Source: Candidatus Acidiferrum sp.
GTDB taxonomy: Bacteria > Acidobacteriota > Terriglobia > Acidiferrales > UBA7541
DNA length: 64,000 nt
Assembly: GCA_035483715.1 (NCBI GenBank)
Contig: DATHPN010000087.1
Coordinates: 7,819 to 71,818, forward strand
Reading direction: 5' to 3'
This document shows positions 18,684-61,951 of this stretch, in pieces; within the stretch, counting starts at the first letter, position 1, and each line of letters begins with the position of its first letter. The notes under the pieces are model-generated. The model was given only the letters and a program-made list of their open reading frames with translations. It was not told where the DNA came from and made no database searches. Position numbers and translations under genes: made by a program.

Positions 18684-21600
18684 TCAGGCCTTTACCGGCG
18701 CCACGGGAGGAGGCACAGGAACTTCAGGCTCCACGCCGCGCCAGCCGACCGACCTGCCCTGCACGGCGCCCATCACCGAGCGGAACAGCACGAAGTACAT
18801 CATCTGCCGGTAGTAGAAACGTTGCAGCAGCAACGGCCAGAGCAGGGACCAGTCTTCATGGCGTTCGAGAGTGAATGCGACAATGCAAGTAAGGAAATCA
18901 ATCAGCATGAATCCGATAAAAAATACTAGCGAGCGCTGCACATCCGCGGTCGTGTAGAACTGTGGCAGGTGAGTGAAATGGATCAGCGAAGCGCCATACA
19001 ACAACAGCGAGCCCAGAAAAAGGAGATCGATCACCGGGGAGAATAGCGGCAACAGTAGCTGGAAAAGAAACATGTTGGGCAGCGCGATCCATCCGAGCGT
19101 CCCGTATTTCCTGCGTCCGAGGGTGTTGCGATGTTTCCAGAAGGCCTGCAGAGTCCCGAACGTCCAGCGGAACCGCTGCCGGATCAGCGTGGACGCCGTT
19201 TCGGGAGCATTCGTCCAGCCAATCGCTTCTTCCTCGTAGTCGATCTTCCAGCCCGAGCGCCGGATGGTGATGGTCAGGTCGGTATCTTCCGCGACAGTGT
19301 CCGCGCTGAAGCCGCCGGAATCGTTAATTGCTTCCGCGCGCCAGGCGCTCAGCGCTCCAGGGACGACCGGAATGCAATTCAGCAAATCAAAGGCGCGCTT
19401 TTCGAGATTCTGGCTGGTGACGTATTCGAGCGCCTGCCAGCGCGTCAGCCAACTGATCCGGTTGCCCACCTTCACGTTTCCGGCGACGGCGCCAACCCTG
19501 GGGTTGACGAAATGCCGGACGAGTTTGCTGATGGCGTCGGGTTCGATGGCGGTGTCGGCGTCGATGGTCACGATGATGCTGCTCGAAGCTTCGGCCAGGG
19601 CATGGGAGAGCGCAGCAGGCTTCCCGGAATTGGGCTGGTGCATGATGCGAACGGCGGGATTTCGCCCGAATTGCGCATCGAGTAATTCGCCCGTGCCGTC
19701 GTTCGACCCGTCGTCCACGACGATCACTTCCAGCCGTGAATAGTCGGACTCCAGCACGGAATTGATGGTGTAGACGATGACGTCTTCTTCGTTGTAAGCG
19801 GGGATCAGCACGCTCACCACCGGCTGAAAATCCGGCTGATCGGGAGGCGAAGGCCGGAACTTCTCGATGATGGCGAGGAATCCCACGATAATCGCGCGGC
19901 AGCTCACAAGGCCAATCCCCAGAACGAAAATAAATGCCACGCTCAGCCGCGACCACTCATACAGCGTGAAGATCAGTCCATCGGCATGAGCCACGAGGCG
20001 CTCGCGGAAAGTGAGCGGCGGCATCAGCTGCGCGCGCGTTTGCCCTACCAGCTCCGAGACCGGGACGATCTGAAATCCCGCGGCGCGCAAGCCGTCAATA
20101 ATTTCCGGTAAGGCTTGCACGGTATTCGCGCGATCACCGCCGCCGTCATGCAGCAGCACAATGTTGCCGCCGTTCGAACGCGCCTGCTCGAGAACGCGTT
20201 GAACGATCACTTGGGCCGGAGCCGGCGGAACACCTCCAGGCTCGCCCCAATCGTGCGGATCGATTCGCGCGCCCACGATCAAGTAGCCCATGGATTGCGC
20301 GATGGGCAGCTCAGCGACTTCATCCGCCGTTTCAGGCTGGTGGTCGATGCCGTACGGCGGGCGGAATAAGAGCGTCTTCACGCCCAGCGTGCTGTTCAGC
20401 AGCCGCTCGGTCACATTCAGCTCGACGTCAATTTGCGTGCGCGAGATTTCATTCCAGCGTGGATGCGTATAGGTGTGGTTGCCGATCTCGTGGCCCTCGT
20501 CATATTCGCGCCGGATAATTCCCAGGGCGTCGTTGGCGCCGCTTCCGATCACAAAGAATGTGGCTGGCGCATGTTTGGCTTTCAAGACATCCAAAATTTT
20601 TGGCGTGAAGGTCGTGTCCGGCCCATCGTCGAAACTGAGCGCGACTTTGTAGGGCGCGGCGCCCATCTGGAAGATGCGATAAGAAGTGGGAAGCGACTGG
20701 TAATTGTCCTCGACAATGTTGTCGGTCGCAGGATCAAAGCGAATCGAACGTTTCCCTTTTTGCGGCGTGTCCGCGAACCTCCAGATGTCGCCGTCGCCCT
20801 CGAGAACCAGGTCATATCCCGGTGGCATGTCTTGGAGTTTGGCGCGGTCGGCGTCATTGGGGCGCGAGTTATCCCAGATCGACCACACCGAAGGATCTTC
20901 CGAGCCCAGCCGCCAGATCGCCGTGCCTTGCACGCCGACGCGTTCGGCGGCGCGCAGTTCGTTGTAGGCGGTCACGCCGTCGAGCATCCAGACGCGGTGG
21001 ATGAAGTTGTGCTCGTCCGAATACGAATAGAAAGGGTTGAGAGAATCCGAGTCAAACTGGACCTGGGCTTCCGATTCCGTCGCCGTGACGATGGACTCCT
21101 GGAAGCTCTCCACCTTGGCCTGTTCGTGCGCCTTCAATCCCGCCTTGCTGGGCCAATCGTAGGCGTAGTTGGCGATTCCCATCACCAGCTTCGCCGGCGG
21201 CACCAGCTTGGTGATGGCCTCGATGTTCCTCACAAACCAATCTTGCGCGGCGATGGGGCCGGGGCCGGATGTGCGCCAGTGCTGGTCGTAATTCATGAGG
21301 ATCACGGCGTCGGCGGATTTTCCAATCCCGGCGTAGTCGTAAATCCAGTCGGCCGCGGGGAGTGCAACCATGAGTTTCAGATTCGAGCTGTGCAGATCCG
21401 CGGCCAGCTCGGAGATAAATTGGCTGAAATCCTTCTGGCTCTTGTCGGGAATTTCTTCAAAATCGACAACGAGTCCGGCGAAGTGGTTTAGTGTGAGATA
21501 TTGGACCGATTGTTGAGCCAGATTTCCACGGGCCGCGGGGCTCTTGAGCATGGTGGCCATTTCGTCGGTGAGCCAGTTGGTGCCGTCGGAATTGTTCAGC

Positions 21601-22088
21601 AGCGGCATGGTAGGAATTTTGATGGGAGGATTTTGTTGCGCCAGCGTCTGCTCCCAGGCCGCGAGTTTGGGATCGGCCTCCACATCCAGGCGGCCGGTGG
21701 CAGTAATCGAGTGCAGGCGCTCGGGAACGAGCAAGTCGATGTCCCGGAAATGCTGCTGCAGCGCCGCGAGAGATGTGGGATCCCAGCTGACGTAAAATGC
21801 GGCGCGCACGGGATCGTAAGTGGCGGGCATCTGGCCGAGCGATTCGACGCGGCGGTACCGCCCCGTCCTTTTCAACGTGATTTTAGTCCTGGTTTTTTCA
21901 CGCACCGGATGCAGCGCGGTGCGGTTAGTGGGAAGCAAGGGCACGGGCAATCGAGGGCTTACAAGAATGTTGATTAAAAACGTGATGGTCAGCAAAGTAA
22001 AAAGCGCGCCGCTGATTTCCAGAATGCGGCTGGTGCGCCGCCAGCGGCGGCGCTGCTCATCGTAGAATATGGGCTTGCGCGGCTTCAT
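18684..22088 (-). CDS. tri-domain exopolysaccharide synthase: GH18-like + NodB polysaccharide deacetylase + processive family-2 glycosyltransferase (PgaC/NodC-like)
   Basis: 1134 aa.
- N-terminal TM (aa 26-44).
- GH18-like aa ~93-400 (GLVVDFEE).
- NodB aa ~478-680 with all motifs (FDDGP, GNHTYTHP, LFRPPYG, LLHD).
- TM aa ~705-742.
- GT2 aa ~755-985 (VDDGSNDGT, DAD, AED, QRFRW).
- C-terminal TM bundle. Confidence 0.88.
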   Translation of the reverse strand: MKPRKPIFYDEQRRRWRRTSRILEISGALFTLLTITFLINILVSPRLPVPLLPTNRTALHPVREKTRTKITLKRTGRYRRVESLGQMPATYDPVRAAFYVSWDPTSLAALQQHFRDIDLLVPERLHSITATGRLDVEADPKLAAWEQTLAQQNPPIKIPTMPLLNNSDGTNWLTDEMATMLKSPAARGNLAQQSVQYLTLNHFAGLVVDFEEIPDKSQKDFSQFISELAADLHSSNLKLMVALPAADWIYDYAGIGKSADAVILMNYDQHWRTSGPGPIAAQDWFVRNIEAITKLVPPAKLVMGIANYAYDWPSKAGLKAHEQAKVESFQESIVTATESEAQVQFDSDSLNPFYSYSDEHNFIHRVWMLDGVTAYNELRAAERVGVQGTAIWRLGSEDPSVWSIWDNSRPNDADRAKLQDMPPGYDLVLEGDGDIWRFADTPQKGKRSIRFDPATDNIVEDNYQSLPTSYRIFQMGAAPYKVALSFDDGPDTTFTPKILDVLKAKHAPATFFVIGSGANDALGIIRREYDEGHEIGNHTYTHPRWNEISRTQIDVELNVTERLLNSTLGVKTLLFRPPYGIDHQPETADEVAELPIAQSMGYLIVGARIDPHDWGEPGGVPPAPAQVIVQRVLEQARSNGGNIVLLHDGGGDRANTVQALPEIIDGLRAAGFQIVPVSELVGQTRAQLMPPLTFRERLVAHADGLIFTLYEWSRLSVAFIFVLGIGLVSCRAIIVGFLAIIEKFRPSPPDQPDFQPVVSVLIPAYNEEDVIVYTINSVLESDYSRLEVIVVDDGSNDGTGELLDAQFGRNPAVRIMHQPNSGKPAALSHALAEASSSIIVTIDADTAIEPDAISKLVRHFVNPRVGAVAGNVKVGNRISWLTRWQALEYVTSQNLEKRAFDLLNCIPVVPGALSAWRAEAINDSGGFSADTVAEDTDLTITIRRSGWKIDYEEEAIGWTNAPETASTLIRQRFRWTFGTLQAFWKHRNTLGRRKYGTLGWIALPNMFLFQLLLPLFSPVIDLLFLGSLLLYGASLIHFTHLPQFYTTADVQRSLVFFIGFMLIDFLTCIVAFTLERHEDWSLLWPLLLQRFYYRQMMYFVLFRSVMGAVQGRSVGWRGVEPEVPVPPPVAPVKA

Positions 22089-22136
22089 TCCGTTATCTCA
22101 AGTAACTCAAGCGAGCCGTCTGTCGGAACGGCATCG

Positions 22137-29272: not shown

Positions 29273-29360
29273 AGTGGCGCGGGCTTCAGCCTGCGTGGGT
29301 TGGTCGAGGAAGGGTCGATCTTTCCGCGACTAAAACGCGCAGGCTGAAGCCCGCGCCACT
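29273..29360. repeat. PAL-A palindromic repeat copy 2 (GTGGCGCGGGC variant)
   Basis: AGTGGCGCGGGCTTCAGCCTGCG ... CGCGCAGGCTGAAGCCCGCGCCACT, in the purB / HNH-like divergent spacer. Confidence 0.9.
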
Positions 29361-36050: not shown

Positions 36051-36122
36051 GTAGCACAGGCTTCAGCCTGTGGGTTTTTGTTATTGCAAGGACTAACCCC
36101 CGCAAGCTGAAGCGTGCGCCAC
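36051..36122. repeat. PAL-A palindromic repeat copy 3 (degenerate right arm)
   Basis: GTAGCACAGGCTTCAGCCTGTGGG ... CCCCGCAAGCTGAAGCGTGCGCCAC, starting 2 nt after the stop at 36049. Confidence 0.85.
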
Positions 36123-37775: not shown

Positions 37776-37848
37776 GTAGCGCAGGCTTCAGCCTGTGGGG
37801 GTTCAGGACTTGCAAGGACCAAACCCACAGGCTGAAGCCTGCGCTACT
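37776..37848. repeat. PAL-A palindromic repeat copy 4
   Basis: GTAGCGCAGGCTTCAGCCTGTGGGGGTTCAGGACTTGCAAGGACCAAACCCACAGGCTGAAGCCTGCGCTACT. Confidence 0.92.
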
Positions 37849-38198: not shown

Positions 38199-38271
38199 GT
38201 AGCGCAGGCTTCAGCCTGTGGGTTTTAGACCTTGCAAGAACCAACCCCCACAGGCTGAAGCCTGCGCTACT
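38199..38271. repeat. PAL-A palindromic repeat copy 5
   Basis: GTAGCGCAGGCTTCAGCCTGTGGGTTTTAGACCTTGCAAGAACCAACCCCCACAGGCTGAAGCCTGCGCTACT. Confidence 0.92.
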
Positions 38272-39084: not shown

Positions 39085-39115
39085 CAAAACCACACCGGCT
39101 GAAGCCTGTGCTACT
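39085..39115. repeat. PAL-A half copy (right arm only)
   Basis: CAAAACCACACCGGCTGAAGCCTGTGCTACT. No matching left arm is recognisable upstream. Confidence 0.6.
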
Positions 39116-41602: not shown

Positions 41603-41688
41603 TGTAGCGCAGGCTTCAGCCTGTGGGTTTTGGTTACTGCAAGGGTGATATTGCTCGAACCAAACCCCACAGGCTGAAGCCTGCGCTA
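41603..41688. repeat. PAL-A palindromic repeat copy 6
   Basis: GTAGCGCAGGCTTCAGCCTGTGGGTTTTGGTTACTGCAAGG...CCAAACCCCACAGGCTGAAGCCTGCGCTAC, 2 nt after the MFS stop. Confidence 0.92.
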
Positions 41689-43166: not shown

Positions 43167-43252
43167 GTAGCGCAGGCTTCAGCCTGTGGTTTTGGGCGCT
43201 GGAAGTGCAACAATTCTTCAACCAAACCCCACAGGCTGAAGCCTGCGCTACT
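43167..43252. repeat. PAL-A palindromic repeat copy 8
   Basis: GTAGCGCAGGCTTCAGCCTGTGGTTTTGG ... CCAAACCCCACAGGCTGAAGCCTGCGCTACT. Confidence 0.92.
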
Positions 43253-44904: not shown

Positions 44905-44975
44905 GTAGCGCAGGCTTCAGCCTGGGGGGTTTAGTCCTTGCCAGTGCGAACCCCACAGGCTGAAGCCTGCGCTAC
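44905..44975. repeat. PAL-A palindromic repeat copy 9
   Basis: GTAGCGCAGGCTTCAGCCTGGGGGGTTTAGTCCTTGCCAGTGCGAACCCCACAGGCTGAAGCCTGCGCTAC. Confidence 0.9.
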
Positions 44976-45541: not shown

Positions 45542-46318
45542 TTGCTGATGCGAAATTCCTCGACGGTTTTGAGCCTTGCTCTCTTTGCGGCGCTCTCGCT
45601 TCCTGCTTTTGCGCGGGCTCAGAACGCGGACGAGTCCGGCGCCGCAAAAGTCCCGGCGGTCGTAGCACCGGGAGCCGATCTGACCGGAGTTTGGACGCAA
45701 TTCCCGCGCATCGGCGGCCGCAGCCTGGGCGAAGGCGGCTTTGTTTTCAGCAAAGAGGATCCGCCGATGACGCCCTGGGCGGAAGAAAAACTCAAGTCCA
45801 CCAAGGCGCCTCACACAGGCGGTTACACGGGCGAGTCGGACGACACTACTTTGAAATGTTATCCTCCCGGCGTGCCGCGGATTTATCTTTTCAATTTTCC
45901 GATGGAAATCTTCGTGGTTCCCGGCCGCGTGCTGATCGTCCACGAATTTGGCCACTATATTCGCCAGATCTGGACCGATGGGCGGCCGCATCCAAAGGAC
46001 CTGAATCCCAGCTGGATGGGGGACTCGATTGGAAAGTGGGAGGGAGACGCTCTCGTCGTCGATACCATCGGTTTCAACGACAAGACCTGGCTCGATCAAG
46101 TCGGCCATCCCCATTCCGACGAGCTACACCTCATCGAGCGCATCCACCGCACTGCACCGGACATGCTGCAAATCGATTTCACATTCGACGATCCCAAGGC
46201 CTACACCAGGAAATGGACCGGGATGAAGCAGTTCAAGCTTCGCCCGGACTGGCACATTTCGGAATACGTCTGCGAGGAAAATTTCGACAATAAAGAAATA
46301 CAGGAAATCAGCAAATAG
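45542..46318 (+). CDS. secreted conserved hypothetical protein (partner of the DUF6152-like gene)
   Basis: 258 aa. Signal MLMRNSSTVLSLALFAALSLPAFARAQ. CYPPGVPR...IRQIWTDGRPHP...WMGDSIGKWEGDALVVDTIGFNDKTWLD..GHPHSD. No family name recognised. Confidence 0.6.
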   Translation: MLMRNSSTVLSLALFAALSLPAFARAQNADESGAAKVPAVVAPGADLTGVWTQFPRIGGRSLGEGGFVFSKEDPPMTPWAEEKLKSTKAPHTGGYTGESDDTTLKCYPPGVPRIYLFNFPMEIFVVPGRVLIVHEFGHYIRQIWTDGRPHPKDLNPSWMGDSIGKWEGDALVVDTIGFNDKTWLDQVGHPHSDELHLIERIHRTAPDMLQIDFTFDDPKAYTRKWTGMKQFKLRPDWHISEYVCEENFDNKEIQEISK

Positions 46319-46414
46319 CGCGGGCTTCAGCCTGCGGGGTTTCAGTCCCATGCACACGGGCTACACGCACTTGCCAAGATCGAATGGAACCCCACAGACT
46401 GAAGTCTGCGCTAC
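46316..46414. repeat. PAL-A palindromic repeat copy 10 (long spacer)
   Basis: TAGCGCGGGCTTCAGCCTGCGGGGTTTCAG ... GGAACCCCACAGACTGAAGTCTGCGCTAC. The first TAG is the stop codon of the preceding gene. Confidence 0.85.
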
Positions 46415-48447: not shown

Positions 48448-48522
48448 AGTGGCGCGGGCTTCAGCCTGCGGGTGTTCGTCCTTGCAAGGGCCAAAAACCC
48501 GCAGGCTGAAGCCCGCGCCACT
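48448..48522. repeat. PAL-A palindromic repeat copy 11 (GTGGCGCGGGC variant)
   Basis: AGTGGCGCGGGCTTCAGCCTGCGGGTGTTCGTCCTTGCAAGGGCCAAAAACCCGCAGGCTGAAGCCCGCGCCACT. Confidence 0.92.
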
Positions 48523-51468: not shown

Positions 51469-52272
51469 ATGCAGTTCGACATCATCACAATTTTTCCGGA
51501 ATTTTTCGCCGGCCCGCTGGATTACGGAATCGTACGTCGGGCGCGCGAGGCGCGTCTCGTGGATGTCTGCGTACACGACCTGCGCGCTTTCGTGCACGAT
51601 CGCCATCGAACCGTGGATGACCGCCCGTTTGGCGGCGGCGAGGGCATGGTGCTGAAACCCGAGCCGCTGTTCGAGGCCGTGGAATCGCTTGCGGGCGATG
51701 CAGCAGCAGGGCATGACGTGCCCCCACAAGGCGATGCAACGCCCGGCACGCGTTCAGCTACTGCGATTGTTCTGCTCTCCGCATCCGGGAAATTATTTCG
51801 ACAGGATACAGCGCGGCGATTCGCGCAACTCGATCGCGTCATCTTGCTGTGCGGCCGCTACGAAGGAGTGGACGAGCGTGTGGCCGAGCATCTTGCCACC
51901 GACGAACTCTCCATCGGCGATTTTGTTCTATCCGGCGGCGAATTGGGCGCCGCGCTCATCGTGGATGCGGTAACGCGCTTGATTCCAGGCGCACTGGGCA
52001 ACGAAGATTCCACAGTGAACGAATCTTTCAGCGCCCTCGAAGCTGAGGGCAGCGAAGCGATGTCCCCCGCCAGTCACCCGTCCCCGGTCCCCAGTCCCCT
52101 CCTCCTCGATTGCCCTCACTACACCCGCCCCGCGGAATTTCGCGGCTGGAGCGTTCCGGAAGTTTTGCTCGGCGGAAATCACGAAGAGATTCGCCGCTGG
52201 CGCCAGCAAAAAGCCCTGGAAAAAACACGACGCAACCGCCCCGATTTGCTGAACATCCCGATCGCCCTTTAG
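51469..52272 (+). CDS. trmD: tRNA (guanine37-N1)-methyltransferase TrmD
   Basis: [62 protein letters not shown]. Two low-complexity inserts make it 267 aa. Confidence 0.95.
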
Positions 52273-52344
52273 TAGCGCAGGCTTCAGCCTGTGGATTTTG
52301 GGCCTTGCTAGGACGAACCCCCACAGGCTGAAGCCTGCGCTACT
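52271..52344. repeat. PAL-A palindromic repeat copy 12
   Basis: AGTAGCGCAGGCTTCAGCCTGTGGATTTTGGGCCTTGCTAGGACGAACCCCCACAGGCTGAAGCCTGCGCTACT. It overlaps the trmD TAG stop (52270-52272). Confidence 0.92.
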
Positions 52345-52346
52345 TT

Positions 52347-54227
52347 TTAACGCAGAGGCACCTGTGCCCCTGAAGCATACGGCCGAACTGTCGAATCGTC
52401 TTCATCCGGTTCGTACACCCACACATCCCGATTGCGAAAATAATTGAGCAGGGGTCCGAGATCCATTCCGGGAATTTCTCGCGCCCATAACGTTTTTGCA
52501 TGATCGATGTCGGCGTCGTTATAAACGTACTCCTCCCCGGAATTGTGATTTTTCGAATAGCGCACGAGAACGAGATGTTCGCCGGGGAGGGCCGCAAGCT
52601 GCGTTTCAACCGGCTTTCGGAAAGGGTAAATGAGGTCGTCCGGGTATGGAAAAGCATCCGCGTAGAGATTCCTTTGCATCTCGCAAAGTTGAAGCACGAT
52701 TGCGAGGACCAGCAGAAATTCGCAGGATGCGATCAGCCATCCCGGCTGGGCCGGGGCAGCTCGCGTGGTGAGGGACGATCCCACCCTCAGCAATACCAAT
52801 GCGAGTAGCGAGGCCACCAATGCCGCCACGGTGTGACGGTGCAACCATTCGAACAGAGCGTTCGGCTGCGAAATCTTAGTCTGCGCGAAATAGATTGGCC
52901 CGACGAGCACACTGAAGAGGACAATCAGCCGCGTCAATGCAACGCCGACACCCCTGCCAAGGAAGTGCAACCGCCGCAGGACTCGCATGCACTGCATCAG
53001 CAACACAAAGACCGTGGCCATAAGAGGCGCGGCGTAGTGCGCATGGTAGTACACTACGACCCAGAGCCCGACGGCTGAAAGAGCGGCCTGAGCGAGCAGC
53101 AAGCGATTCCGCCGGTTTTTTAACACCCAAGGCAGGGCGAGAAAAGGGATTGAAAGCGCGGGGCCCAGGAAAAATTCGTAAAATTCCGTGGACTTGTCCC
53201 ACCACAGTTGTTCGGCTCCCGCCCAGCCGGGCTGATAGAGGCTCGGCAGAAAACGGTGGTAAAAGTCGTCGAATTGCGGATTGGAATAGGCGATGGGCGG
53301 CTTGTCATGCTGCCAAATGAAAATGGCCGTGGTAATTTTCCGCCCTTCGATGAAGTGAGGGAACACCACCGGGTTTCCCGTTACGCGCCAATTGTAATAG
53401 GCGATAAAGCCGGCGGTACAGGCGAGAATTGCGGCGATCGACAAGATGATGCGCCTCATCGCTGCGCCTCGCGCGCGGACTTCCAGCCGCAGCGCCCACC
53501 AGAGAAGGGCCGCACCAAAGGGAATTAAAAAAATAGCCCCTTCCAAGGGCCGGCTTACCGCAAGAATGGCCGCTCCCAATCCGAAGACAATTGCGTCGCG
53601 CAGACGCTGGTGATCCCAGATTCGTGGCAGCGCTCCCAAGACCAGGGCGGCCCCGATCGCCGCCACCGCTCCGCCCCAATAGCGGTTTATCCAATAAGTA
53701 AATATGCCAAACCGCGTCCACACCAGGATGCCGCCGAGAAACGACCATTCCGGCGGCACCCACGCCTGCAGCATCCAGGTGAATGCCATGCCCATGGCGG
53801 CAACGCTCAGAAGCACGCCGATCCACGGGTGGCCCAGCAATTTTCCGATGGCCAGGGCCATTCCTTGCGCCGGCGGGTACATTGACGCATACGTGGGATG
53901 CTGGATGACGTGAAATGTGTCGAAAAAAATCCAGAGTGGATGCGGCCGATTCGTCAGCCTGCCGTGGACAAACGTGTCCGCGGCAAGCAAGTAGCTGAGC
54001 TCATCGTGAACCTTGGGCGGCGGGATTGGCAGCCATGGCAAAAGCGCCACGCGCGCAAGGACGGTGGCCGCGCCGACGGCCGCTACAGCAAGCCGCTGAT
54101 TTCGCGCGAACTCGGAAAACTTTTGCTCGATCCCGCCCAGAATTAGCTCACCGAAACCCGGCCTGGGCCAGACAAGCGCCAGGCAAACCGCAAGAACAAT
54201 CCAATCCAGTATCTGCATGGAATCCAC
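52347..54227 (-). CDS. large polytopic membrane protein, GT-C-like (paralog a)
   Basis: 626 aa, ~12 or more TMs. First external loop PPPKVHDELSYLLAADTFVHGRLTNRPHPLW..FHVIQHPTYASMYPPAQG. Soluble C-terminal ~110 aa. Clear paralog of 56600..58390. Confidence 0.65.
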   Translation of the reverse strand: MDSMQILDWIVLAVCLALVWPRPGFGELILGGIEQKFSEFARNQRLAVAAVGAATVLARVALLPWLPIPPPKVHDELSYLLAADTFVHGRLTNRPHPLWIFFDTFHVIQHPTYASMYPPAQGMALAIGKLLGHPWIGVLLSVAAMGMAFTWMLQAWVPPEWSFLGGILVWTRFGIFTYWINRYWGGAVAAIGAALVLGALPRIWDHQRLRDAIVFGLGAAILAVSRPLEGAIFLIPFGAALLWWALRLEVRARGAAMRRIILSIAAILACTAGFIAYYNWRVTGNPVVFPHFIEGRKITTAIFIWQHDKPPIAYSNPQFDDFYHRFLPSLYQPGWAGAEQLWWDKSTEFYEFFLGPALSIPFLALPWVLKNRRNRLLLAQAALSAVGLWVVVYYHAHYAAPLMATVFVLLMQCMRVLRRLHFLGRGVGVALTRLIVLFSVLVGPIYFAQTKISQPNALFEWLHRHTVAALVASLLALVLLRVGSSLTTRAAPAQPGWLIASCEFLLVLAIVLQLCEMQRNLYADAFPYPDDLIYPFRKPVETQLAALPGEHLVLVRYSKNHNSGEEYVYNDADIDHAKTLWAREIPGMDLGPLLNYFRNRDVWVYEPDEDDSTVRPYASGAQVPLR

Positions 54228-54316
54228 CAGCGACTAACGAATCGCAGATATGAGGGTAGCCAGCTTATGGATCACAATCAATGACCGGGGCATATTCTGC
54301 CGGACGAAACGCGCGA

Positions 54317-56119
54317 CTACAAGGCGCTCACTTTGCGGATGAGGTCTGGCGAGAGTTCAAACTCGGCCCTGTTGTTCGGGTAAAATTCGATAAATTGATC
54401 TGACAGGGACTTCAAATCGTTCGGGTCCAGGGGCCGGGTTTTCTTATATATGAAAGCGCTGCTCCCGTCTTCCAGCCTGAATTCGTAATTCAATTTATCG
54501 TAGGATTTTCCTATGCCTTCCCCCTTCACGAGCTGGTCGGCGAGAACCCCGATCACCTTTTGATCCTGTGGCGGAAGGTGGTAGGCAAAAGGCAGGGTCA
54601 GCACGACATAGCGCGCCGTGAGAAACTGGACCGGGAAACCGTCCCTTTTGTCCACATCATTTGTCAAAGCGATTCTGCGCGCCAACTCGCGATGAATTCT
54701 CTGTAATGAGAAACACCCTTCCTGAACGATACTAGAATTAAGACTAAATGAACTTGCAAGAACGTAAACAGTTGACGGCGAACCCTTGGTGATGTCGTTT
54801 AAAGCGTCCAGCAACGCCTGCACTTGATCCAGATCCGTCCGGACCATCGGATATTCCCTCGCTCCCGGCAAAACAAACTCGACAGCCATCAGAGGTCTCT
54901 CCGCTCGCGGCAGGAATGTGACGGCGAAGTTCGCCAGGCTTCCGGCCAAAATGACGAGGACAAGTGCGGCTTTTCGAGGACGGCTCCGGGCCAGCAGGAA
55001 CAGGTCTTGCACGGAAAACACCAGGAACAGGCCCAGGGTAGCCAGCGCCCAATAGAAGTGTTGGACGCCGACGTATTCCCCGTGGGACGAAATGACGAAA
55101 TCCTGTGTGCGCGTAAAGAGCACGAAGGTGATCGCAAACTGGACGCAAAGGAAATAGGCGATGGGCCGTCTCTTTTCGTTCATTACGGAGAGCACGATCC
55201 CCAGGCCAGCCAGCACAAGGGTCAGCAGCCCGAAATGCTGATAGAGTTCTCCCAGGTTGTGAATGAACGGGTCGCTCGACCGATAGGCCGAATAAATATC
55301 TCCATAATCCGTGGTCAGCATTCTTTTTGCGATGGGAGTAGCAATCAGATAAAACGAAAGGAAAGAAATGGCCCCCAAAATCAAAGCGTTTCTGGCGATG
55401 AGCAGCCAATGCGCACGGCGCGCTTTGTCGGCCGCGAAACGCAAACCTTCGCACACGGCCAGGGCCCCAAAGAAACCAACCACCCAATAGGCGTACCACC
55501 TTCGATACAAAACCAGAAGGCAGAGCAGGAGCGCCATGGACACCAGGCTTACATAACTTTGGTCGACAATGTCGGCGCGAAAATACAGCACCAGCACGAT
55601 TAAGATAATGAGGAAGCCGCCCACATCGACGGAGCCAAATACGACCGGTACCCAAAGCACAGGCAAGAACGCCAGCGTTGATGCGGACAGGACTGTAAGC
55701 CCTATTTCGTCAAATGGACTCTCCGCCGGACTCCTCCCGGACAGGCGCCGTACTACATACGCGAAAAGCACGATCGAGGGAAATGCAAAAGTCACCGTAA
55801 GAGACAAAATATAAGATAGTCTGCCCGGTCCAAATGTCAGGCTGAAAGGCACAAGGAATAAAGTTGGCAGTAAGTTGTAGTCGTTCACTCGAACGGAAAG
55901 GAAGACAAATCGTAACGCCCTCAGTATGTCTTGCTCAAACGCCAGGCCCAGGTTGGCGAAGTATTCGTGATATCCGACGTAATCCCAGAAGTAAATGAAC
56001 CGCTCCTGCCTCACGTACCAGGTCACAAAGAGCGCCAACATCGAGAATATGGCGGCGAATAAAGCGACCTCGGCCCAACGGGCCTTGAAACTGATCGAAG
56101 GTGAGGGTGAGGCGCTCAT
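54317..56119 (-). CDS. large polytopic membrane protein with C-terminal soluble domain (family not recognised)
   Basis: I prefer ATG 56119 (MSASPSPSISFKARWAEVALFAAIF). About 12 TMs, then a ~190-aa soluble tail. Visibly AT-richer than the flanks. Confidence 0.6.
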   Translation of the reverse strand: MSASPSPSISFKARWAEVALFAAIFSMLALFVTWYVRQERFIYFWDYVGYHEYFANLGLAFEQDILRALRFVFLSVRVNDYNLLPTLFLVPFSLTFGPGRLSYILSLTVTFAFPSIVLFAYVVRRLSGRSPAESPFDEIGLTVLSASTLAFLPVLWVPVVFGSVDVGGFLIILIVLVLYFRADIVDQSYVSLVSMALLLCLLVLYRRWYAYWVVGFFGALAVCEGLRFAADKARRAHWLLIARNALILGAISFLSFYLIATPIAKRMLTTDYGDIYSAYRSSDPFIHNLGELYQHFGLLTLVLAGLGIVLSVMNEKRRPIAYFLCVQFAITFVLFTRTQDFVISSHGEYVGVQHFYWALATLGLFLVFSVQDLFLLARSRPRKAALVLVILAGSLANFAVTFLPRAERPLMAVEFVLPGAREYPMVRTDLDQVQALLDALNDITKGSPSTVYVLASSFSLNSSIVQEGCFSLQRIHRELARRIALTNDVDKRDGFPVQFLTARYVVLTLPFAYHLPPQDQKVIGVLADQLVKGEGIGKSYDKLNYEFRLEDGSSAFIYKKTRPLDPNDLKSLSDQFIEFYPNNRAEFELSPDLIRKVSAL

Positions 56120-56599
56120 GGTCGAGCGAGCCGGATTTCCAAGGATTTGCGCAGAGTGCGGCGCACGCGGCGGGCGCCTGGAAATAGTGAGCATTCTTCC
56201 CGTAGAAAACCTGGATTGGTCATGGGGTTGCCGGGCAGCGTCAAAGAATAGTTGTCTTATGCCTCGTTGCTTTGCGCGTTTTGAAACACGGGAACATCCT
56301 CGATTCATTATTACCATGTTCTCGTCTGGACGACTTGAACCGCTGCGTGGGCAGGTGTCGGTTTATGTACGGTGATTTTAGCTTTGAGCACCTTGCGACC
56401 CTAGCTCCCTACGAATTGCGGCAGCCTGTTTCTGCCTCCCGACCCGCTCGCTCGCCGGCGACTCCACCCGCGGGATAACTCCTTTGCGACACTGAGTGGG
56501 ATGGAGACATCCGCGGAGTTTGCATGGCTGTTAGCATAGAAATGGAAGAGGTTGGGTGCCTGTTGTTTCGTTGATACAGCCTATGGTCACAGGACTTTA

Positions 56600-58390
56600 A
56601 TGCTCGAACTCCTTTCCGAAATGTTGACGAGCGTCACAGTGGAACAGGTGGAGTGGTACGTCGTTTTCCTGGCAATCGTTGTATCGCTTTTATTTCCGCG
56701 CCTGGCCTCTGCGCAATTTGCCGCACTGGAACGAGCCTTGGCACGGCTTGCGCGGCGGCGCACCTTGGCCTGGCTCTCCGTAGGAATTTTGGCATTGATC
56801 GTGCGAGCGGCCGCGCTGCCCCTGTTGCCCGTTCCCGTCCCCACCATTCATGACGAATTTGAAAACCTGGTCATGGCCGACACTTTTGCACATGGCCGCC
56901 TGACCAACCCGCCCCATTCCATGCGGATTCATTTCGAGACTTTTCACATCCTTCAAGAGCCGACCTACACGGGAATTGTTCCCCCTGGCCAGGGTTTGCT
57001 GCTTGCCGCGGGAAAGGTCCTTGGCGGGCATCCATTCGTAGGCGTGTGGTTGAGCGTGGGAATCATGTGCGCGGCAATCTGCTGGATGCTGCAAGGATGG
57101 CTTCCGCCGAACTGGGCGCTGCTGGGTGGGCTCCTGGCCGTGGCGCGATTCGGCTTATTCAGTTATTGGGCGAACTCCTATTGGGGTGGGGCACTCGCCG
57201 CCATTGGCGGAGCGCTCGTCCTTGGTTCTTATCCCAGGATCCGAAAGCATGGGAAAATTGCCGATGTATTGTTAATGGGGATGGGTCTGGCCATTCTCGC
57301 CAATAACAGACCCTATGAAGGGTTTGTCTTGAGCTTGCCGGTGGCCGCAGCGATGCTCATTTGGTTGACGGCATGCAAGGGGCCTCATTTGCGCTTGCTC
57401 TTAGGGCGCGTGGTTCTGCCACTGGCCATAATGCTTACCCTGACGGCTGGCGCAATCGGCTACTACAATTGGCGAGTGACGGGGAACCCTTTGCGGTCCC
57501 CCTATGAAGTCAGCATGGCAACCGTCAATCCGATTCCTTATTTTCCCTGGCAAGCCGAGCGTCCCATTCCGGCCTATCATTACAAATTAATCAGGGATTT
57601 CTATCTGGACTGGGATCTGCCGCAATACGAACAGCTGCGAACTTTCCATGGATGGATCGCGTCGACGGCACTCAAAATCAAAAGGCTTTCGAGATTCTAC
57701 CTGGGGGCCGCGCTGGGGTTCCCGATTATCCTGGCCATCTTAATCGGCGGTTTCCGATCCGTGTTTCTGGGCCGACTTCGTTTCCTGTTCCTTTGTCTTG
57801 GAGTTGCGCTAGCCGGATTGTTGCTCGAGGTCCAATACCTCCCCCACTATGCGGCGCCCGTAACGGCGATTTTTCTGGCCTTCATTGTTCAAGCCACTCG
57901 ATGCCTGTATGTAAGCGGCCGGCGCGGAAAATCAAGGTTTCTCTTTGCCGCCCGCGCTGTGCCCCTTATTTGCGTGTTCTCTCTCACGCTCGGCATGGCG
58001 CAATTGTCGCTAGGACGCAATCTGGTCACGGATTGGCCGAATTCCTGGTATTCCAGGATTGCCGGCAACTTGGCTCGTGATCAAATTGAGAAATGGCTCG
58101 AGCAACGGCCGGGGCAGCAGCTTGTCATTGTGCGGTACTCGACCGACCATAGTGTGCACATTGAGTGGGTCTACAATCCCGGTGATATAGACGGCGCTAA
58201 GGTGATTTGGGCCCGGGATATGGATCCGGAACACAACCAGGAGTTGTTACGCTACTTCCCAAACCGAACTGTCTGGCTCTTGGAAGCTGATAAAAGGGTC
58301 GATGGAAAGATATTAATCCAACCCTACCCAGCTTCCATCGCTATGTTGCGTCCGGGGACCGGAGAACCGGATTCTTCCACCATGTACTAG
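56600..58390 (+). CDS. large polytopic membrane protein, GT-C-like (paralog b)
   Basis: ATG 56600. VPVPTIHDEFENLVMADTFAHGRLTNPPHSMRIHFETFHILQEPTYTGIVPPGQG aligns residue-for-residue with paralog a. Same TM layout and C-terminal domain (VIVRYSTDHS...WVYNPGDIDGAKVIWARD). Confidence 0.65.
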   Translation: MLELLSEMLTSVTVEQVEWYVVFLAIVVSLLFPRLASAQFAALERALARLARRRTLAWLSVGILALIVRAAALPLLPVPVPTIHDEFENLVMADTFAHGRLTNPPHSMRIHFETFHILQEPTYTGIVPPGQGLLLAAGKVLGGHPFVGVWLSVGIMCAAICWMLQGWLPPNWALLGGLLAVARFGLFSYWANSYWGGALAAIGGALVLGSYPRIRKHGKIADVLLMGMGLAILANNRPYEGFVLSLPVAAAMLIWLTACKGPHLRLLLGRVVLPLAIMLTLTAGAIGYYNWRVTGNPLRSPYEVSMATVNPIPYFPWQAERPIPAYHYKLIRDFYLDWDLPQYEQLRTFHGWIASTALKIKRLSRFYLGAALGFPIILAILIGGFRSVFLGRLRFLFLCLGVALAGLLLEVQYLPHYAAPVTAIFLAFIVQATRCLYVSGRRGKSRFLFAARAVPLICVFSLTLGMAQLSLGRNLVTDWPNSWYSRIAGNLARDQIEKWLEQRPGQQLVIVRYSTDHSVHIEWVYNPGDIDGAKVIWARDMDPEHNQELLRYFPNRTVWLLEADKRVDGKILIQPYPASIAMLRPGTGEPDSSTMY

Positions 58391-58672
58391 CCGATGATTC
58401 TCCGCGCGCCAGCGACTGAGTCCGCATTGTTTCTAAATGGGATCTGTGATTTCATGGGCGTAGGTTTGATGGCGGAAAAGGCACAGCTTCTTGTTTGTCC
58501 GAGTGCGCCTCGATACGCTTCATAGGATCATCCTGTTTATTCTTGGTGAGGATTCCGGCGGTAAATCGGGGCAGAGTTAAGGATATTTACCGCTCCAGGT
58601 TCCTCGAAGATCATTTGGGGGGCGGCTGAAAGCAATACTGGCGCGGTGAAAGAATTCTGACGGATCTTGAGA

Positions 58673-59707
58673 ATGAGCGAAACGCAAATATCCCTGTCGG
58701 TCCTGGTCCCGGTGCATAACGAAGAGTCCGTGCTCCCGGAGTCTCTCCGCCGCGTGGGCAGCGTGCTGGACGGGATTCCCGGCGGGCCGCACGAGATCGT
58801 ATTTGTGGACGATGGGAGTTCGGACCGCACGCTGGAAATTCTTGAGGAAGCTGCCGCGCTTGATCCGAGGATCAAGGTGATCGCGCTGTCGCGAAATTTC
58901 GGCCACCAGGCCGCGCTCACGGCGGCCATGGACTACGCCGGAGGAGACGCGGTCATTGTGATCGATGGCGATCTGCAAGATCCGCCCGAGATTATTCCGG
59001 ACCTCGTGAAACTTTATCGCTCCGGATACGACGTCGTGTACGCCCAGCGCAAGGAACGCAAGGAAGTCTGGTGGCTGCGGCTGTGCTTCTTTCTTTTCTA
59101 CCGGCTCATGTCCAAGCTTTCCGACATCCGCCTTCCCCTGGATGCCGGTGATTGCGGGCTGATGTCCCGGCGCGTTGTGGAACACCTTCGCGGCATGACC
59201 GAACATCACCGCTATTTGCGGGGAATGAGAAGTTGGGTCGGGTTTCGGCAGACGGGCATGGCCGTAGAGCGCTCCGTACGCCATTCGGGGGAGAGCAAAT
59301 ACAGCGCGCTCCGGCGTCTCAAGTTCGCCCTGGACGGGATATTCGCGTTCTCCACCGTCCCGATCCGGGCCGCCTCCATACTGGGCGCAATCGCCATCCT
59401 GGTGTCCACTCTTTACGCCATAGTTACAATCTATGCGAAAGTGTTTTTGCACCAGACCGTGCAAGGCTTTGCCGCGCTGATCGTGGTGATGACTTTCCTT
59501 TCGGGCGTGCTTCTTTTTTTCCTCGGCATCGTCGGCGAATATGTCGGGCGCGTATATGAAGAACTCAAAGCGCGCCCCCTTTACGTCGTGGACCGGTGCA
59601 TTGGCCACGCCTTCACGGATCACCCGGCAGCAAGATCGGCCGGATCGCCTCTGGCGGCCGCAGGCGGCAGGCGCGTCCGGATGCGCAGCCATGAAGCGGA
59701 AAACTAA
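58673..59707 (+). CDS. polyprenyl-phosphate glycosyltransferase, GtrB/ArnC/DPM1-like (GT2 with two C-terminal TM helices)
   Basis: LSVLVPVHNEE, FVDDGSSDRT, LSRNFGHQAALTAAMDYAGGDAVIVIDGDLQDPPE, VVYAQRKERKE, then TM helices AASILGAIAILVSTLYAIV and FAALIVVMTFLSGVLLFFLGIVGEYVGRVY. Confidence 0.88.
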   Translation: MSETQISLSVLVPVHNEESVLPESLRRVGSVLDGIPGGPHEIVFVDDGSSDRTLEILEEAAALDPRIKVIALSRNFGHQAALTAAMDYAGGDAVIVIDGDLQDPPEIIPDLVKLYRSGYDVVYAQRKERKEVWWLRLCFFLFYRLMSKLSDIRLPLDAGDCGLMSRRVVEHLRGMTEHHRYLRGMRSWVGFRQTGMAVERSVRHSGESKYSALRRLKFALDGIFAFSTVPIRAASILGAIAILVSTLYAIVTIYAKVFLHQTVQGFAALIVVMTFLSGVLLFFLGIVGEYVGRVYEELKARPLYVVDRCIGHAFTDHPAARSAGSPLAAAGGRRVRMRSHEAEN

Positions 59708-59721
59708 GCCCAGGATTTCCT

Positions 59722-60462
59722 TTGGACCCTGAATTCAGCCAACGGTACCGCGAACTCTACGAACGTCACTGGTGGTTTCGAGCGCGCGAAGAACTGATCG
59801 TCAAGTTTCTTCGCCGCAACCAGCCTCCGGGCGGATGGGGCACGATTCTCGACGTCGGTTGCGGAGATGGACTGTTTTTCCGCGAACTGACGCAGTTCGG
59901 CGACGTTGAGGGGATCGAAGTGTCCGCCGATGTGATCAGCCCGGACAACCCTTATCGCGACCGCATCCATATCGGCCCATTCGATAAGACTTTCCAGCCC
60001 GGCAAGAAGTATTCGCTTGTCCTGATGCTGGACGTCCTCGAACATTTAGCCGAACCGGTCGAAGCCCTGCGGAATGCCCTTTCCCATCTGCAACCGCATG
60101 GTTGCTTGCTGATTACCGTGCCCGCTTTCAAGGCTCTTTGGACCAGTCACGACGAACTCAACTACCATTTCACGCGATACACCCGGGCTACCTTTAGCCA
60201 AGTAGCGGAAAAAGCAGGCATGAGGACCGCGGTATCGCGGTATCTTTTCTACTGGCTCTTCCCGGTCAAATTGGCGGTGAGGGGGAAAGAGAGATTGTTC
60301 GGTTCTACCCCCAGGATTCCTGGGATACCACCCTCCGGCTTGAATCGTATGTTGTATTGGGTTTCGCGGCTGGAAGAGGAATTATTGGGAAGATTTCCGG
60401 TGCCTCTGGGCAGCTCGCTTTTAATTTTTGGACGGGCGTCTTCCAACGGCGGGAATCAGTAA
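59722..60462 (+). CDS. class I SAM-dependent methyltransferase
   Basis: TTG start. YERHWWFRAREELI, SAM motif ILDVGCGDGLFF, LVLMLDVLEHL. Confidence 0.85.
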   Translation: MDPEFSQRYRELYERHWWFRAREELIVKFLRRNQPPGGWGTILDVGCGDGLFFRELTQFGDVEGIEVSADVISPDNPYRDRIHIGPFDKTFQPGKKYSLVLMLDVLEHLAEPVEALRNALSHLQPHGCLLITVPAFKALWTSHDELNYHFTRYTRATFSQVAEKAGMRTAVSRYLFYWLFPVKLAVRGKERLFGSTPRIPGIPPSGLNRMLYWVSRLEEELLGRFPVPLGSSLLIFGRASSNGGNQ

Positions 60463-60491
60463 CTTTTGTTCAACGCCTCAGGACTGCAAGG

Positions 60492-60552
60492 TTGCGTGGC
60501 GCCCGGCGCCAGCCTATTATAGTTGGTGGAAAAGCGGGAATTCCGCTATACT
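60492..60552 (+). promoter_or_regulatory. two tandem sigma70-like promoter motifs upstream of rplS
   Basis: TTGCGT (60492-60497), 17 nt, TATTAT (60515-60520). TTGGTG (60523-60528), 18 nt, TATACT (60547-60552). Confidence 0.4.
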
Positions 60553-60610
60553 CAACGATTGTGTTTGCAGTGCTGACCCCGCCTGAGTGGGTCTGCCGGG
60601 AATCTGAGCC

Positions 60611-61267: not shown

Positions 61268-61951
61268 GTGCTAGAATCCGCGCTGATGCGGAAACAATGC
61301 TCCTCGCGTTTCGAGCGCCAGGCCCGCAAGTGCGGTTGGCAAAGGATTGCTGGTCTTGATGAAGTCGGGCGCGGCTCTCTTTTTGGCCAGGTGGTTGCCG
61401 CAGCCGTTATCCTGGATCCCAAGCGGCGGATTGTGGGCCTCGACGATTCCAAAAAATTGCCCGCTGAGCGCCGCGAAGTTCTGGCCATGCGAATTCGCGA
61501 ACACGCTCTCGCCTGGGCCATCGCGGAAGTTGATGCCCGCCGCATCGATGCCTGGAATATTTATCAGGCCAGCCGCCAGGCCATGGCTGAAGCCCTGCGG
61601 CAGTTGAAAATCTCCCCCGATTATTTGCTGCTCGACGCCATGCAGCTGGACGTGCTGATCGAACAGAAATCGCTCATCCACGGTGACGCGCTTTCGATTT
61701 CCATCGCCGCCGCGTCCATCATTGCCAAAGTGGAACGCGACCGGCGGATGCTCGAATGGGACCGGATTTATCCGCAGTATGGGCTGGCGCAGCACAAAGG
61801 CTACGCCACACCTGACCATCTCGCCGCCCTGCGCGCCCACGGGCCCACACCGCACCATCGTTTTTCCTTTGCCCCGGTACGCGATGCTTCCTGCTGGGCT
61901 GCGGGAGCAACGCAAGCGCCATTGCCGCTTTCCGCCTGTGAAAATTCGTGA
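61268..61951 (+). CDS. rnhB: ribonuclease HII
   Basis: GTG start. IAGLDEVGRGSLFGQVVAAAVIL, DDSKKL, DAMQLD, KGY.TP.H: RNase HII motifs. Confidence 0.92.
   Translation: MLESALMRKQCSSRFERQARKCGWQRIAGLDEVGRGSLFGQVVAAAVILDPKRRIVGLDDSKKLPAERREVLAMRIREHALAWAIAEVDARRIDAWNIYQASRQAMAEALRQLKISPDYLLLDAMQLDVLIEQKSLIHGDALSISIAAASIIAKVERDRRMLEWDRIYPQYGLAQHKGYATPDHLAALRAHGPTPHHRFSFAPVRDASCWAAGATQAPLPLSACENS

Follow-up and report, generated by a model that had tools for sequence, protein, structure and literature searches.

A probable lipid-carrier-dependent glycosylation island beside rplS in an Acidobacteriota genome, with two unnamed families of proteins predicted to have the GT-C fold

Introduction

A block of five genes that separates trmD from rplS in a 64,000-nucleotide stretch of DNA from Candidatus Acidiferrum sp., an uncultured soil bacterium of the Terriglobia within the Acidobacteriota (GenBank assembly GCA_035483715.1, contig DATHPN010000087.1, positions 7,819 to 71,818 of the forward strand; hereafter the window), probably constitutes a multi-component glycosylation island that depends on a lipid carrier and acts outside of the cytoplasmic membrane in the style of the Gtr, Arn and Pgf systems. 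We place the probability of this reading, which draws on sequence comparisons and structural models, at about 0.7. The block encodes three polytopic membrane proteins (A, M and B), a GtrB-type glycosyltransferase (GT2) and an S-adenosylmethionine (SAM)-dependent methyltransferase (MT). An earlier annotation of the same DNA (the original prediction) had proposed a GtrB/ArnC-like synthase working with external GT-C enzymes by the logic of the Gtr, Arn and PMT systems, and this core is borne out by the GtrB match of GT2, by the predicted GT-C folds of the polytopic proteins and by a conserved motif in a loop that appears to be external.

The Gtr systems of Shigella, Salmonella and their phages, which glucosylate the O-antigen, consist of a flippase, GtrA, an undecaprenyl-phosphate glucose synthase, GtrB, and a serotype-specific Gtr protein of the GT-C type. 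Three- or multi-component transmembrane glycosylation systems are well described and widespread (PMC11127046, PMC8035078), and those known include Gtr glucosylation, ArnC/ArnT, CsbB/GtcA/YfhO, Pgf and the pentofuranose three-component systems (PMC11127046, PMC8035078, PMC12041528, PMC7389260). The Pgf operon encodes two GT-C enzymes alongside a single GT-A enzyme (PgfS) and an epimerase, with no flippase among its listed operon enzymes (PMC12041528).

Results and Discussion

GT2 belongs to the GtrB family of polyisoprenyl-phosphate glycosyltransferases

The GT2 gene (58667-59707, plus strand) is an open reading frame (ORF) of 346 codons whose likely start is the ATG at 58673. Residues 11-174 of its product match the GT-A catalytic domain PF00535 (E = 5.6e-34), and residues 4-312 align in an ungapped-like manner with chain residues 22-330 of Synechocystis GtrB (5EKP) at 276 bits, the match to ArnC being weaker at 166 bits. 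The residues to which the structural study of GtrB assigns roles in catalysis and substrate binding are D94, D96, R122, D157 and R200 (PMC4728340). All five are kept in the 5EKP alignment, as D100, D102, R128, D162 and R205 of GT2, and they comprise the DXD metal/nucleotide motif (D100 and D102), the putative catalytic acid (D162) and two phosphate-binding arginines (R128 and R205). By our reading, the alignment reaches through the juxtamembrane region into the two C-terminal transmembrane helices, and GT2 would share this membrane part, with its C-terminal hairpin, with GtrB. Because its best NCBIfam match, PgfS (NF047588), scores 262.6 bits and falls under the curated cut-off of 500 bits, GT2 is by this measure not a PgfS equivalog. 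Membership of GT2 in the GtrB family, and with it the enzyme class named in the original prediction, is well supported by the full-length similarity and the five retained residues. Since GT2 resembles GtrB and PgfS more than ArnC, a hexose or N-acetylhexosamine (HexNAc) is more likely as its donor than 4-amino-4-deoxy-L-arabinose (Ara4N).

The polytopic proteins are predicted to adopt the GT-C fold and fall outside named families

A (52347-54227, minus strand; 626 residues) and B (56600-58390, plus strand; 596 residues) are paralogues encoded in inverted orientation, with 41% identity over 432 residues (E = 3e-82), as had been claimed for them. M (54317-56119, minus strand; 600 residues, with an ORF that could be extended to 56317) is unrelated to either by BLASTP, and a profile-profile comparison aimed at a distant relationship between M and the A/B family was negative (probability 1%), in agreement with the earlier description of a third, unrelated polytopic protein. 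No Pfam or NCBIfam glycosyltransferase family matches A, M or B at E <= 0.1, and by these profiles none of the three belongs to a named GT-C family (PMT/PMT_2, ArnT, STT3, YfhO, GT87, Glucos_trans_II and others). No Pfam family is common to the aligned homologues either (72 in the alignment of M, 67 in that of A/B), and sequence and profile searches of the PDB at E <= 10 returned nothing meaningful, with no match for alignment A2 and one chance match (E = 1) for alignment A1. The original prediction could not place these proteins in any named family, and the searches agree with it; a literature search turned up no earlier description of the A/B or M families.

Structural models assign both families to a fold. 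The AlphaFold2 (AF2) model of M has a predicted local distance difference test score (pLDDT) of 93.9 and a predicted template modeling score (pTM) of 0.92, and in a Foldseek search of the PDB its top 11 matches are all GT-C proteins, among them AftA, ArnT (template modeling [TM] scores 0.50/0.54), AglB, PglB, AftB, ALG6 and ALG3. The model of B (pLDDT 91.9, pTM 0.92), built from alignment A2, which includes A, gives 29 top matches that are likewise all GT-C, including ALG12 (TM 0.45/0.55), AglB, AftA, PglB, ArnT (about 0.45/0.48), STT3, ALG9, Pmt4, Emb and DPY19. For both models every match with a Foldseek probability of at least 0.8 is a GT-C structure, whereas matches to the major facilitator superfamily (MFS), G protein-coupled receptors (GPCR) and other transporters or receptors have probabilities of at most 0.25 and TM-scores below 0.2. 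Profile searches and Foldseek on predicted models, both suggested as checks alongside the original prediction, thus yield no profile family and a GT-C fold rather than a transporter fold. We therefore regard GT-C fold membership of the M and A/B families as a high-confidence prediction, extended to A through its 41% identity to B and the shared alignment behind the B model. M additionally contains a C-terminal alpha/beta domain (residues 407-600, approximately), which we take to be periplasmic.

Conserved acidic residues follow the first helix in both families. In A the motif is KVHDEL and in B it is TIHDEF, and across 67 aligned members of the A/B family the aspartate (D85 in B) is invariant and the glutamate (E86) is at least 90% conserved. 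The core helix of B is preceded by a short loop with four lysine or arginine residues in ten, and the motif loop behind the helix is acidic; because of the positive-inside rule, this arrangement fits a placement of the HDE loop outside of the cytoplasm. The original prediction had likened this (V/I)HDE(L/F) element, located directly after the first long hydrophobic helix, to loop 1 of GT-C enzymes, and both its conservation and its apparent topology support the comparison. In the M family, E39 and D46, which follow transmembrane helix 1, are nearly invariant (at least 90% conserved; consensus QERYIYFWD), and a DVDKRDGFP motif is also conserved. The acidic residues of both families appear to occupy the position at which GT-C enzymes carry catalytic ones. 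B would thus be a membrane glycosyltransferase of the A/B family, and M one of a second family without a name.

Neighbourhoods and fusions point to lipid-phosphate-sugar chemistry

Homologues of M were surveyed at 66 loci from species-representative genomes, 59 of which remained after close relatives were dropped, and a GT2 gene was counted as GtrB-like if its product scored at least 150 bits against GT2 of the window. The hosts include Acidobacteriota, Desulfobacterota, Nitrospirota, Methylococcaceae, Variovorax, Raoultella, Mesorhizobium, Bacteroidota, Saccharibacteria, Clostridia and Methanobrevibacter. A GtrB-like gene lies within 3 kb of the M homologue at 25 of the 59 distant loci, which span many phyla, and the density of such genes is 0.089 per kb near the M homologue versus 0.0055 per kb at a distance of 3-10 kb. 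Furthermore, five M homologues (P0189, P0198, P0215, P0216 and L024) carry a GtrA domain fused to their N-terminus.

The A/B family is large, with 8,014 clusters at 50% identity (E <= 1e-3), 3,484 of them at E <= 1e-30, and two or three tandem paralogues occur in 31 of 80 metagenome loci. The order B-GT2, in part followed by MT, recurs in unrelated metagenome loci, and orthologues of GT2 and MT adjoin A/B members in unrelated loci. Around more distant A/B members are found genes for PMT_2, GT87, YfhO, GT4, Wzy_C, a DegT aminotransferase, Methyltransf_23 and a GT2 protein with a GtrB-type membrane domain. In P0364 the A/B domain is fused to a UbiA-family domain whose nearest named NCBIfam models are those of decaprenyl-phosphate phosphoribosyltransferase, all below cut-off; in P0439 it is fused to a PMT_2 GT-C domain and tetratricopeptide (TPR) repeats, and in P0420 and P0497 to TPR repeats alone. 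Taken together, the neighbourhoods and fusions point to lipid-phosphate-sugar chemistry for both the M and the A/B families.

Among the M homologues, those of the enterobacteria Raoultella planticola and R. ornithinolytica (L045 9001-11995 and L046 4634-7628) are 28-29% identical to M and lie directly downstream of a GtrB-like GT2 gene. They have a C-terminal extension of about 110 residues and no GtrA fusion, and the two loci look like an uncharacterised gtr-like modification locus.

MT is probably a partner of GT2

The product of the last gene of the block, MT (59722-60462, plus strand; 246 residues), is a class I SAM-dependent methyltransferase that matches Methyltransf_23 (E = 1.1e-17), which agrees with the original assignment. 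Among proteins of solved structure, it is most similar, though weakly, to dTDP-amino-sugar N,N-dimethyltransferases and CalS10. Adjacent GT2-MT pairs recur away from rplS at four loci (L083, L094, L100 and L126), where the MT orthologues score 260-300 bits, and MT also lies near a GT2 gene in L011 and L066. Three relatives (L002, L006 and L007) lack MT and keep rplS and the rest of the island. We suggest that MT is a conserved partner of GT2 and probably methylates the sugar or a sugar precursor.

A proposed pathway and the observations that weigh against it

In the pathway that we propose, GT2 would use a nucleotide sugar to charge polyprenyl (undecaprenyl) phosphate with a sugar at the cytoplasmic face of the membrane, MT would methylate the sugar or its precursor, and a flippase encoded elsewhere would move the lipid-linked sugar across the membrane. 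M, A and B, as three GT-C-fold enzymes of two families, would then pass the sugar to periplasmic acceptors, with catalysis by the acidic residues of the first external loop (HDE in A and B, E39 and D46 in M). Candidate acceptors are lipopolysaccharide (LPS) or its core, exopolysaccharide and envelope proteins. There are two weak hints as to the acceptor: a GT9 gene in the island of one relative (L001), GT9 being the family of LPS heptosyltransferases, and the TPR fusions within the A/B family, as TPR repeats often bind proteins.

Several observations weigh against this interpretation. No ORF of the window matches, at E <= 10, a GtrA profile made from four fused homologues, and by this search a flippase gene is absent from both the block and the 64-kb window, as the original prediction had noted for GtrA-like proteins. 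The five-gene block also contains no gene for nucleotide-sugar synthesis. The TM-scores of the M and B models to solved GT-C structures are only moderate (0.45-0.55), and the sugar-methylation role of MT is argued from a weak similarity of about 40 bits and from gene adjacency. A GtrB-like gene lies within 3 kb at just 7 of 77 distant A/B-family loci (those outside three close relatives), and tandem A/B arrays often lack one. M is strongly linked to this GT2, A and B less so. In L001, A persists where M, B, GT2 and MT are gone. Finally, the activity, the donor sugar and the acceptor are all inferred.

The island is an old feature of the lineage, with variable content

The island lies beside rplS in every relative examined, its content varies, and the orthologues are 59-85% identical. 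Gene order is identical to that of the window in L004, L077, L078 and L157. L002 is without MT and carries a short-chain dehydrogenase gene; L003 encodes an additional polytopic protein of 518 residues; and in L005 the ffh-trmD run is inverted, and a desaturase and a second methyltransferase are present. The order is rplS-MT-GT2-B-M-A in L008, and in L006 and L007 it is rplS-GT2-B-M-(605-residue polytopic protein)-A, with trmD not within 6 kb. In L001 only A is kept, beside GT9 and a different polytopic protein of 635 residues. Orthologues of A thus occur in all related loci examined and, because L001 keeps A without GT2, A need perhaps not depend on a local GT2. An orthologue matches its own paralogue at about 970-1270 bits, versus about 360-390 bits for the other; because of this roughly threefold difference, the A/B duplication is, by sequence, older than these lineages.

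The original prediction had described the central part of the block as AT-richer than its flanks and had taken this as a sign of acquisition. The description is accurate for M, over which GC content is the lowest of the window (0.524-0.543 in 1800-bp windows, versus 0.589 +/- 0.019), but the conclusion does not follow, as GC content at third codon positions (GC3) gives no signal of acquisition. GC3 is 0.64 for M, 0.64-0.68 across A, M, B and MT, and 0.66 for trmD, rimM and rnhB. Because GC3 equals that of the flanking housekeeping genes, the dip is an effect of amino-acid composition at codon positions 1 and 2, as expected of a hydrophobic membrane protein. The comparison of synteny among relatives, also suggested at the time, shows an rplS-linked island in every relative examined, and this, with the native composition in the window, is the very arrangement that the original prediction had named as evidence against an insertion. 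We conclude from these comparisons that the island is an old, lineage-typical feature anchored beside rplS, and the loss of the insertion claim leaves the glycosylation reading unaffected.

The islands of the relatives encode further polytopic proteins without Pfam matches (L001 6420-8327, minus strand; L006 11868-13682, plus strand; L007 11794-13611, plus strand; L003 11772-13328, minus strand). They are 518-635 residues long, with 9-12 hydrophobic segments in three of the four and about 7 in that of L003, and are unrelated to each other, to A/B and to M; for the 635-residue protein of L001, no relation to the A/B or M family was found. In some of them the first helix is followed by an acidic motif (WRDEVR in L006), and these proteins may be additional GT-C-like enzymes. 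In L003/L029 (contig_90116, 3.37 Mb) the ORFs of the island are fragmented (M into four pieces, B into three, GT2 into three and MT into two, with rplS also broken), which looks like assembly frameshift errors rather than pseudogenes.

Alternative explanations

The variable content of the island lends itself to a different reading, in which the site is a mosaic hotspot that gathers independent GT-C genes, such that M and perhaps B use the product of the local GT2 and A, and possibly B, use donors from elsewhere for other glycans. The presence or absence of MT, the replacement of M, B, GT2 and MT by GT9 and the 635-residue protein in L001, the unrelated polytopic proteins, short-chain dehydrogenase, desaturase or second methyltransferase added in other relatives, the retention of A without GT2 and the weak tie of the A/B family to GtrB-like genes (7 of 77 loci, often with tandem arrays lacking one) would all be expected of such a hotspot. 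Nevertheless, loci whose orthologues are as little as about 60% identical still show the exact set A-M-B-GT2, with or without MT, unrelated loci repeat the B-GT2-MT order, and M and A stand in tandem with an 89-nucleotide gap and a conserved divergent control region common with B; we consider the hotspot unlikely, though it is the alternative that we take most seriously. The idea that an intact trmD-rplS operon was broken up by a recent horizontal insertion is, by contrast, already largely refuted and highly improbable. The low GC content over M, a mobile-looking palindrome similar to repetitive extragenic palindromic (REP) elements at the trmD edge and the scattering of M homologues over many phyla might suggest such an insertion, but GC3 is native and the dip is confined to the first two codon positions, copies of the palindrome occur in intergenic regions genome-wide, all relatives examined, including those with protein identities as low as 59%, carry the island at the same site, and the A/B duplication predates those lineages.

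We attach scarcely any credence to two further possibilities, each of which concerns a component of the proposed glycosylation island. The polytopic proteins could be transporters, flippases or other membrane proteins that merely resemble GT-C enzymes, as they have no sequence family, hence no curated function, and reach TM-scores of just 0.45-0.55; against this, all high-probability structural matches are GT-C and the transporters stay at or below 0.25 probability with TM-scores under 0.2, conserved acidic residues occupy a GT-C catalytic-type position, and neighbourhoods and fusions indicate lipid-linked sugar chemistry. Similarly, MT could be an enzyme of the translation neighbourhood that methylates RNA or a ribosomal protein, is co-expressed with rplS and plays no part in glycosylation, since it is a generic class I protein of no specific family and lies directly upstream of rplS with no predicted terminator between. 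Its orthologues adjoin GT2 orthologues at the four loci named above, none of which has an rplS match within the sequence covered, however, while relatives that retain rplS and the rest of the island dispense with MT, and the solved proteins nearest to it (about 40 bits) are sugar N-methyltransferases.

Comparison with known systems and significance

Like the Gtr systems, the island combines in one locus a GtrB-type enzyme, of the same length and with the same key residues and two-helix membrane anchor, with proteins of predicted GT-C fold that have an acidic first external loop, and homologues of M elsewhere adjoin GtrB-like genes, some being fused to GtrA. It differs from them in that the window has no GtrA, in having three GT-C genes per GtrB, in its methyltransferase partner, in GT-C proteins that lie outside named families, and in its chromosomal position between trmD and rplS rather than in a prophage or O-antigen locus. 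The closest layout is that of the Streptococcus mutans Pgf operon for protein O-glycosylation (PgfS, PgfE, PgfM1 and PgfM2), which has one GT-A synthase, more than one GT-C enzyme and a sugar-modifying enzyme, and whose PgfS is the best NCBIfam match of GT2 (263 bits, below the 500-bit cut-off). PgfM1 and PgfM2, however, belong to the YfhO family, unlike A, B and M, the island has a methyltransferase in place of the epimerase as its modifying enzyme, and its host is a diderm. ArnC/ArnT, which modifies lipid A with aminoarabinose, also pairs a polyprenyl-phosphate sugar synthase with a GT-C enzyme, and ArnT is among the best structural matches of M and B, but GT2 is nearer to GtrB (276 bits) than to ArnC (166 bits), A, B and M have no PMT_2 or ArnT sequence match, and genes for ArnA, ArnB, ArnD, ArnE and ArnF are lacking here. 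The pentofuranose three-component systems and mycobacterial arabinosylation, in which a polyprenyl-phosphate phosphoribosyltransferase is combined with a GT-C enzyme (GT136, Emb/Aft), share the principle of a polyprenyl-phosphate-fed GT-C enzyme; AftA and AftB are among the top structural matches, and P0364 provides the UbiA-family fusion within the A/B family. The window has a GtrB-type rather than a UbiA-type synthase, and therefore a hexose-type donor is more likely here.

The original prediction spoke of an undescribed system. This is too broad, as the kind of system is well described; the novelty lies in the two GT-C sequence families and the combination of genes. Distinctive here are three predicted GT-C proteins from two families without sequence matches in Pfam, NCBIfam or the PDB, the methyltransferase partner, the absence of GtrA from the window and the fixed position at the side of rplS. 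The mechanism itself is not new, and these results are of use for annotation and for the discovery of enzymes, not as a new concept. Two families now annotated as hypothetical receive a predicted fold and a probable type of reaction, and they become concrete candidates for new glycosyltransferase families and for glycoengineering. In addition, the split of trmD from rplS can evidently be a stable, ancient arrangement in which rplS keeps a conserved upstream element of its own.

Acidobacteriota are abundant in soil, and to our knowledge their envelope glycans are hardly known. A more far-reaching idea, which we regard as quite doubtful, is that the site at the side of rplS is a lineage-wide hypervariable locus for the diversification of envelope glycans in these soil Acidobacteriota. 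If it were true, A/B and M would found two new GT-C families at the level of CAZy, and A/B, with about 8,000 clusters at 50% identity, would represent a major uncharacterised envelope-modifying family of soil bacteria. The product of the conserved GT2-MT pair would be a polyprenyl-phosphate sugar that bears a methyl group, which is not among the donors described for Gtr-like systems, and read-through into rplS together with its conserved leader would tie envelope decoration to ribosome synthesis.

Flanks, intergenic regions and other features of the window

In E. coli, trmD and rplS are adjacent and co-transcribed as the last two genes of the rpsP-rimM-trmD-rplS operon. In the window, trmD (51469-52272, plus strand; Pfam tRNA_m1G_MT, E = 8.7e-53) is the last gene of a ffh-rpsP-KH-rimM-trmD run on the left flank, and rplS, encoding L19 (60611-61003, plus strand; Pfam Ribosomal_L19, E = 2.6e-44), forms the right flank, followed by rnhB for RNase HII (61268-61951), also confirmed by Pfam. 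The ORF list and these flanks uphold the five intervening genes at the positions originally given for them, and the strand of M, which had been left unspecified, is minus. The same gene order is found on a contig whose L19 is identical, and there an independent gene caller gives the five products lengths of 623, 600, 596, 344 and 246 residues. The genes form two divergent transcription units, M-A, in tandem with a gap of 89 nucleotides, and B-GT2-MT, of which B is the first gene.

The gap between the convergent trmD and A genes is filled by the REP-like palindrome (52275-52340), a repeat whose presence there had been correctly reported. It has 24-bp arms, followed by a T run on the plus strand; its inner part is listed as terminator-like by a scan, and it may serve as the trmD terminator. 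The arm sequence GCGCAGGCTTCAGCCTGTGG has 23 matches in the window versus 0 expected. About a dozen dispersed copies of the repeat, with arms about 25-55 nucleotides apart that contain GCGCAGGCTTCAGCCTGTGG, are present, at 1584-1648, 29277-29356, 36054-36119, 37779-37844, 38202-38267, 41607-41686, 43170-43248, 44908-44972, 46318-46411, 48452-48518 and 52275-52340, with a single arm at 39092-39111. The palindrome is thus a genome-wide intergenic repeat and no boundary of the island.

The divergent intergenic region (56120-56599) between the M-A and B-GT2-MT units has a mean identity of 74% in an alignment of five loci and contains invariant blocks, among them CGGGATAACTCCTTTG.GACAC at about 56470-56490, followed by CGGGATG (to about 56515), and ATTCATTATTACCA at about 56305-56318, the last of which falls where the longer possible M frame would start (56317). 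These blocks may be control elements common to both units. Rfam has no match for this region or for the rest of the block.

Upstream of rplS lies a promoter-like site with a leader (60523-60610, plus strand), in which TTGGTG and TATACT are separated by 18 nucleotides, with the -10 box at 60547-60552 and a predicted hairpin at 60572-60596 that shows no compensatory changes. From 60545 to the ATG of rplS the sequence hardly varies among eight loci, with just 59-85% identity between the proteins encoded nearby, and this holds even where the upstream gene is a different one; further upstream the loci diverge. A -10-like hexamer, TATACT or TACAAT, occupies the same position across the relatives. 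Rfam has no match for the leader at E <= 1, and 60545-60610 may be an undescribed L19 leader or autoregulatory element of the lineage. The original prediction had assigned rplS promoter motifs of its own at 60492-60552. The hexamers there agree with the sigma-70 consensus at 8 of 12 positions, and the second -10 box stands, as it is conserved in position; the first candidate (60492-60520) decays even in close relatives, and both lie below the threshold of a sigma-70 consensus scan, which returned no site at 60492-60552. We therefore rejected the scan as support for these promoters, and it is conservation that backs the second -10 box. Because no terminator-like site is predicted between MT and rplS, the B-GT2-MT unit may read through into rplS.

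A search of the 64-kb window found no further copies of A/B, M, GT2 or MT. The sole other glycosyltransferase-like match in the window is an ORF of about 1,137 codons at 18687-22097 on the minus strand, whose product resembles the GT2 domain weakly (39.5 bits).

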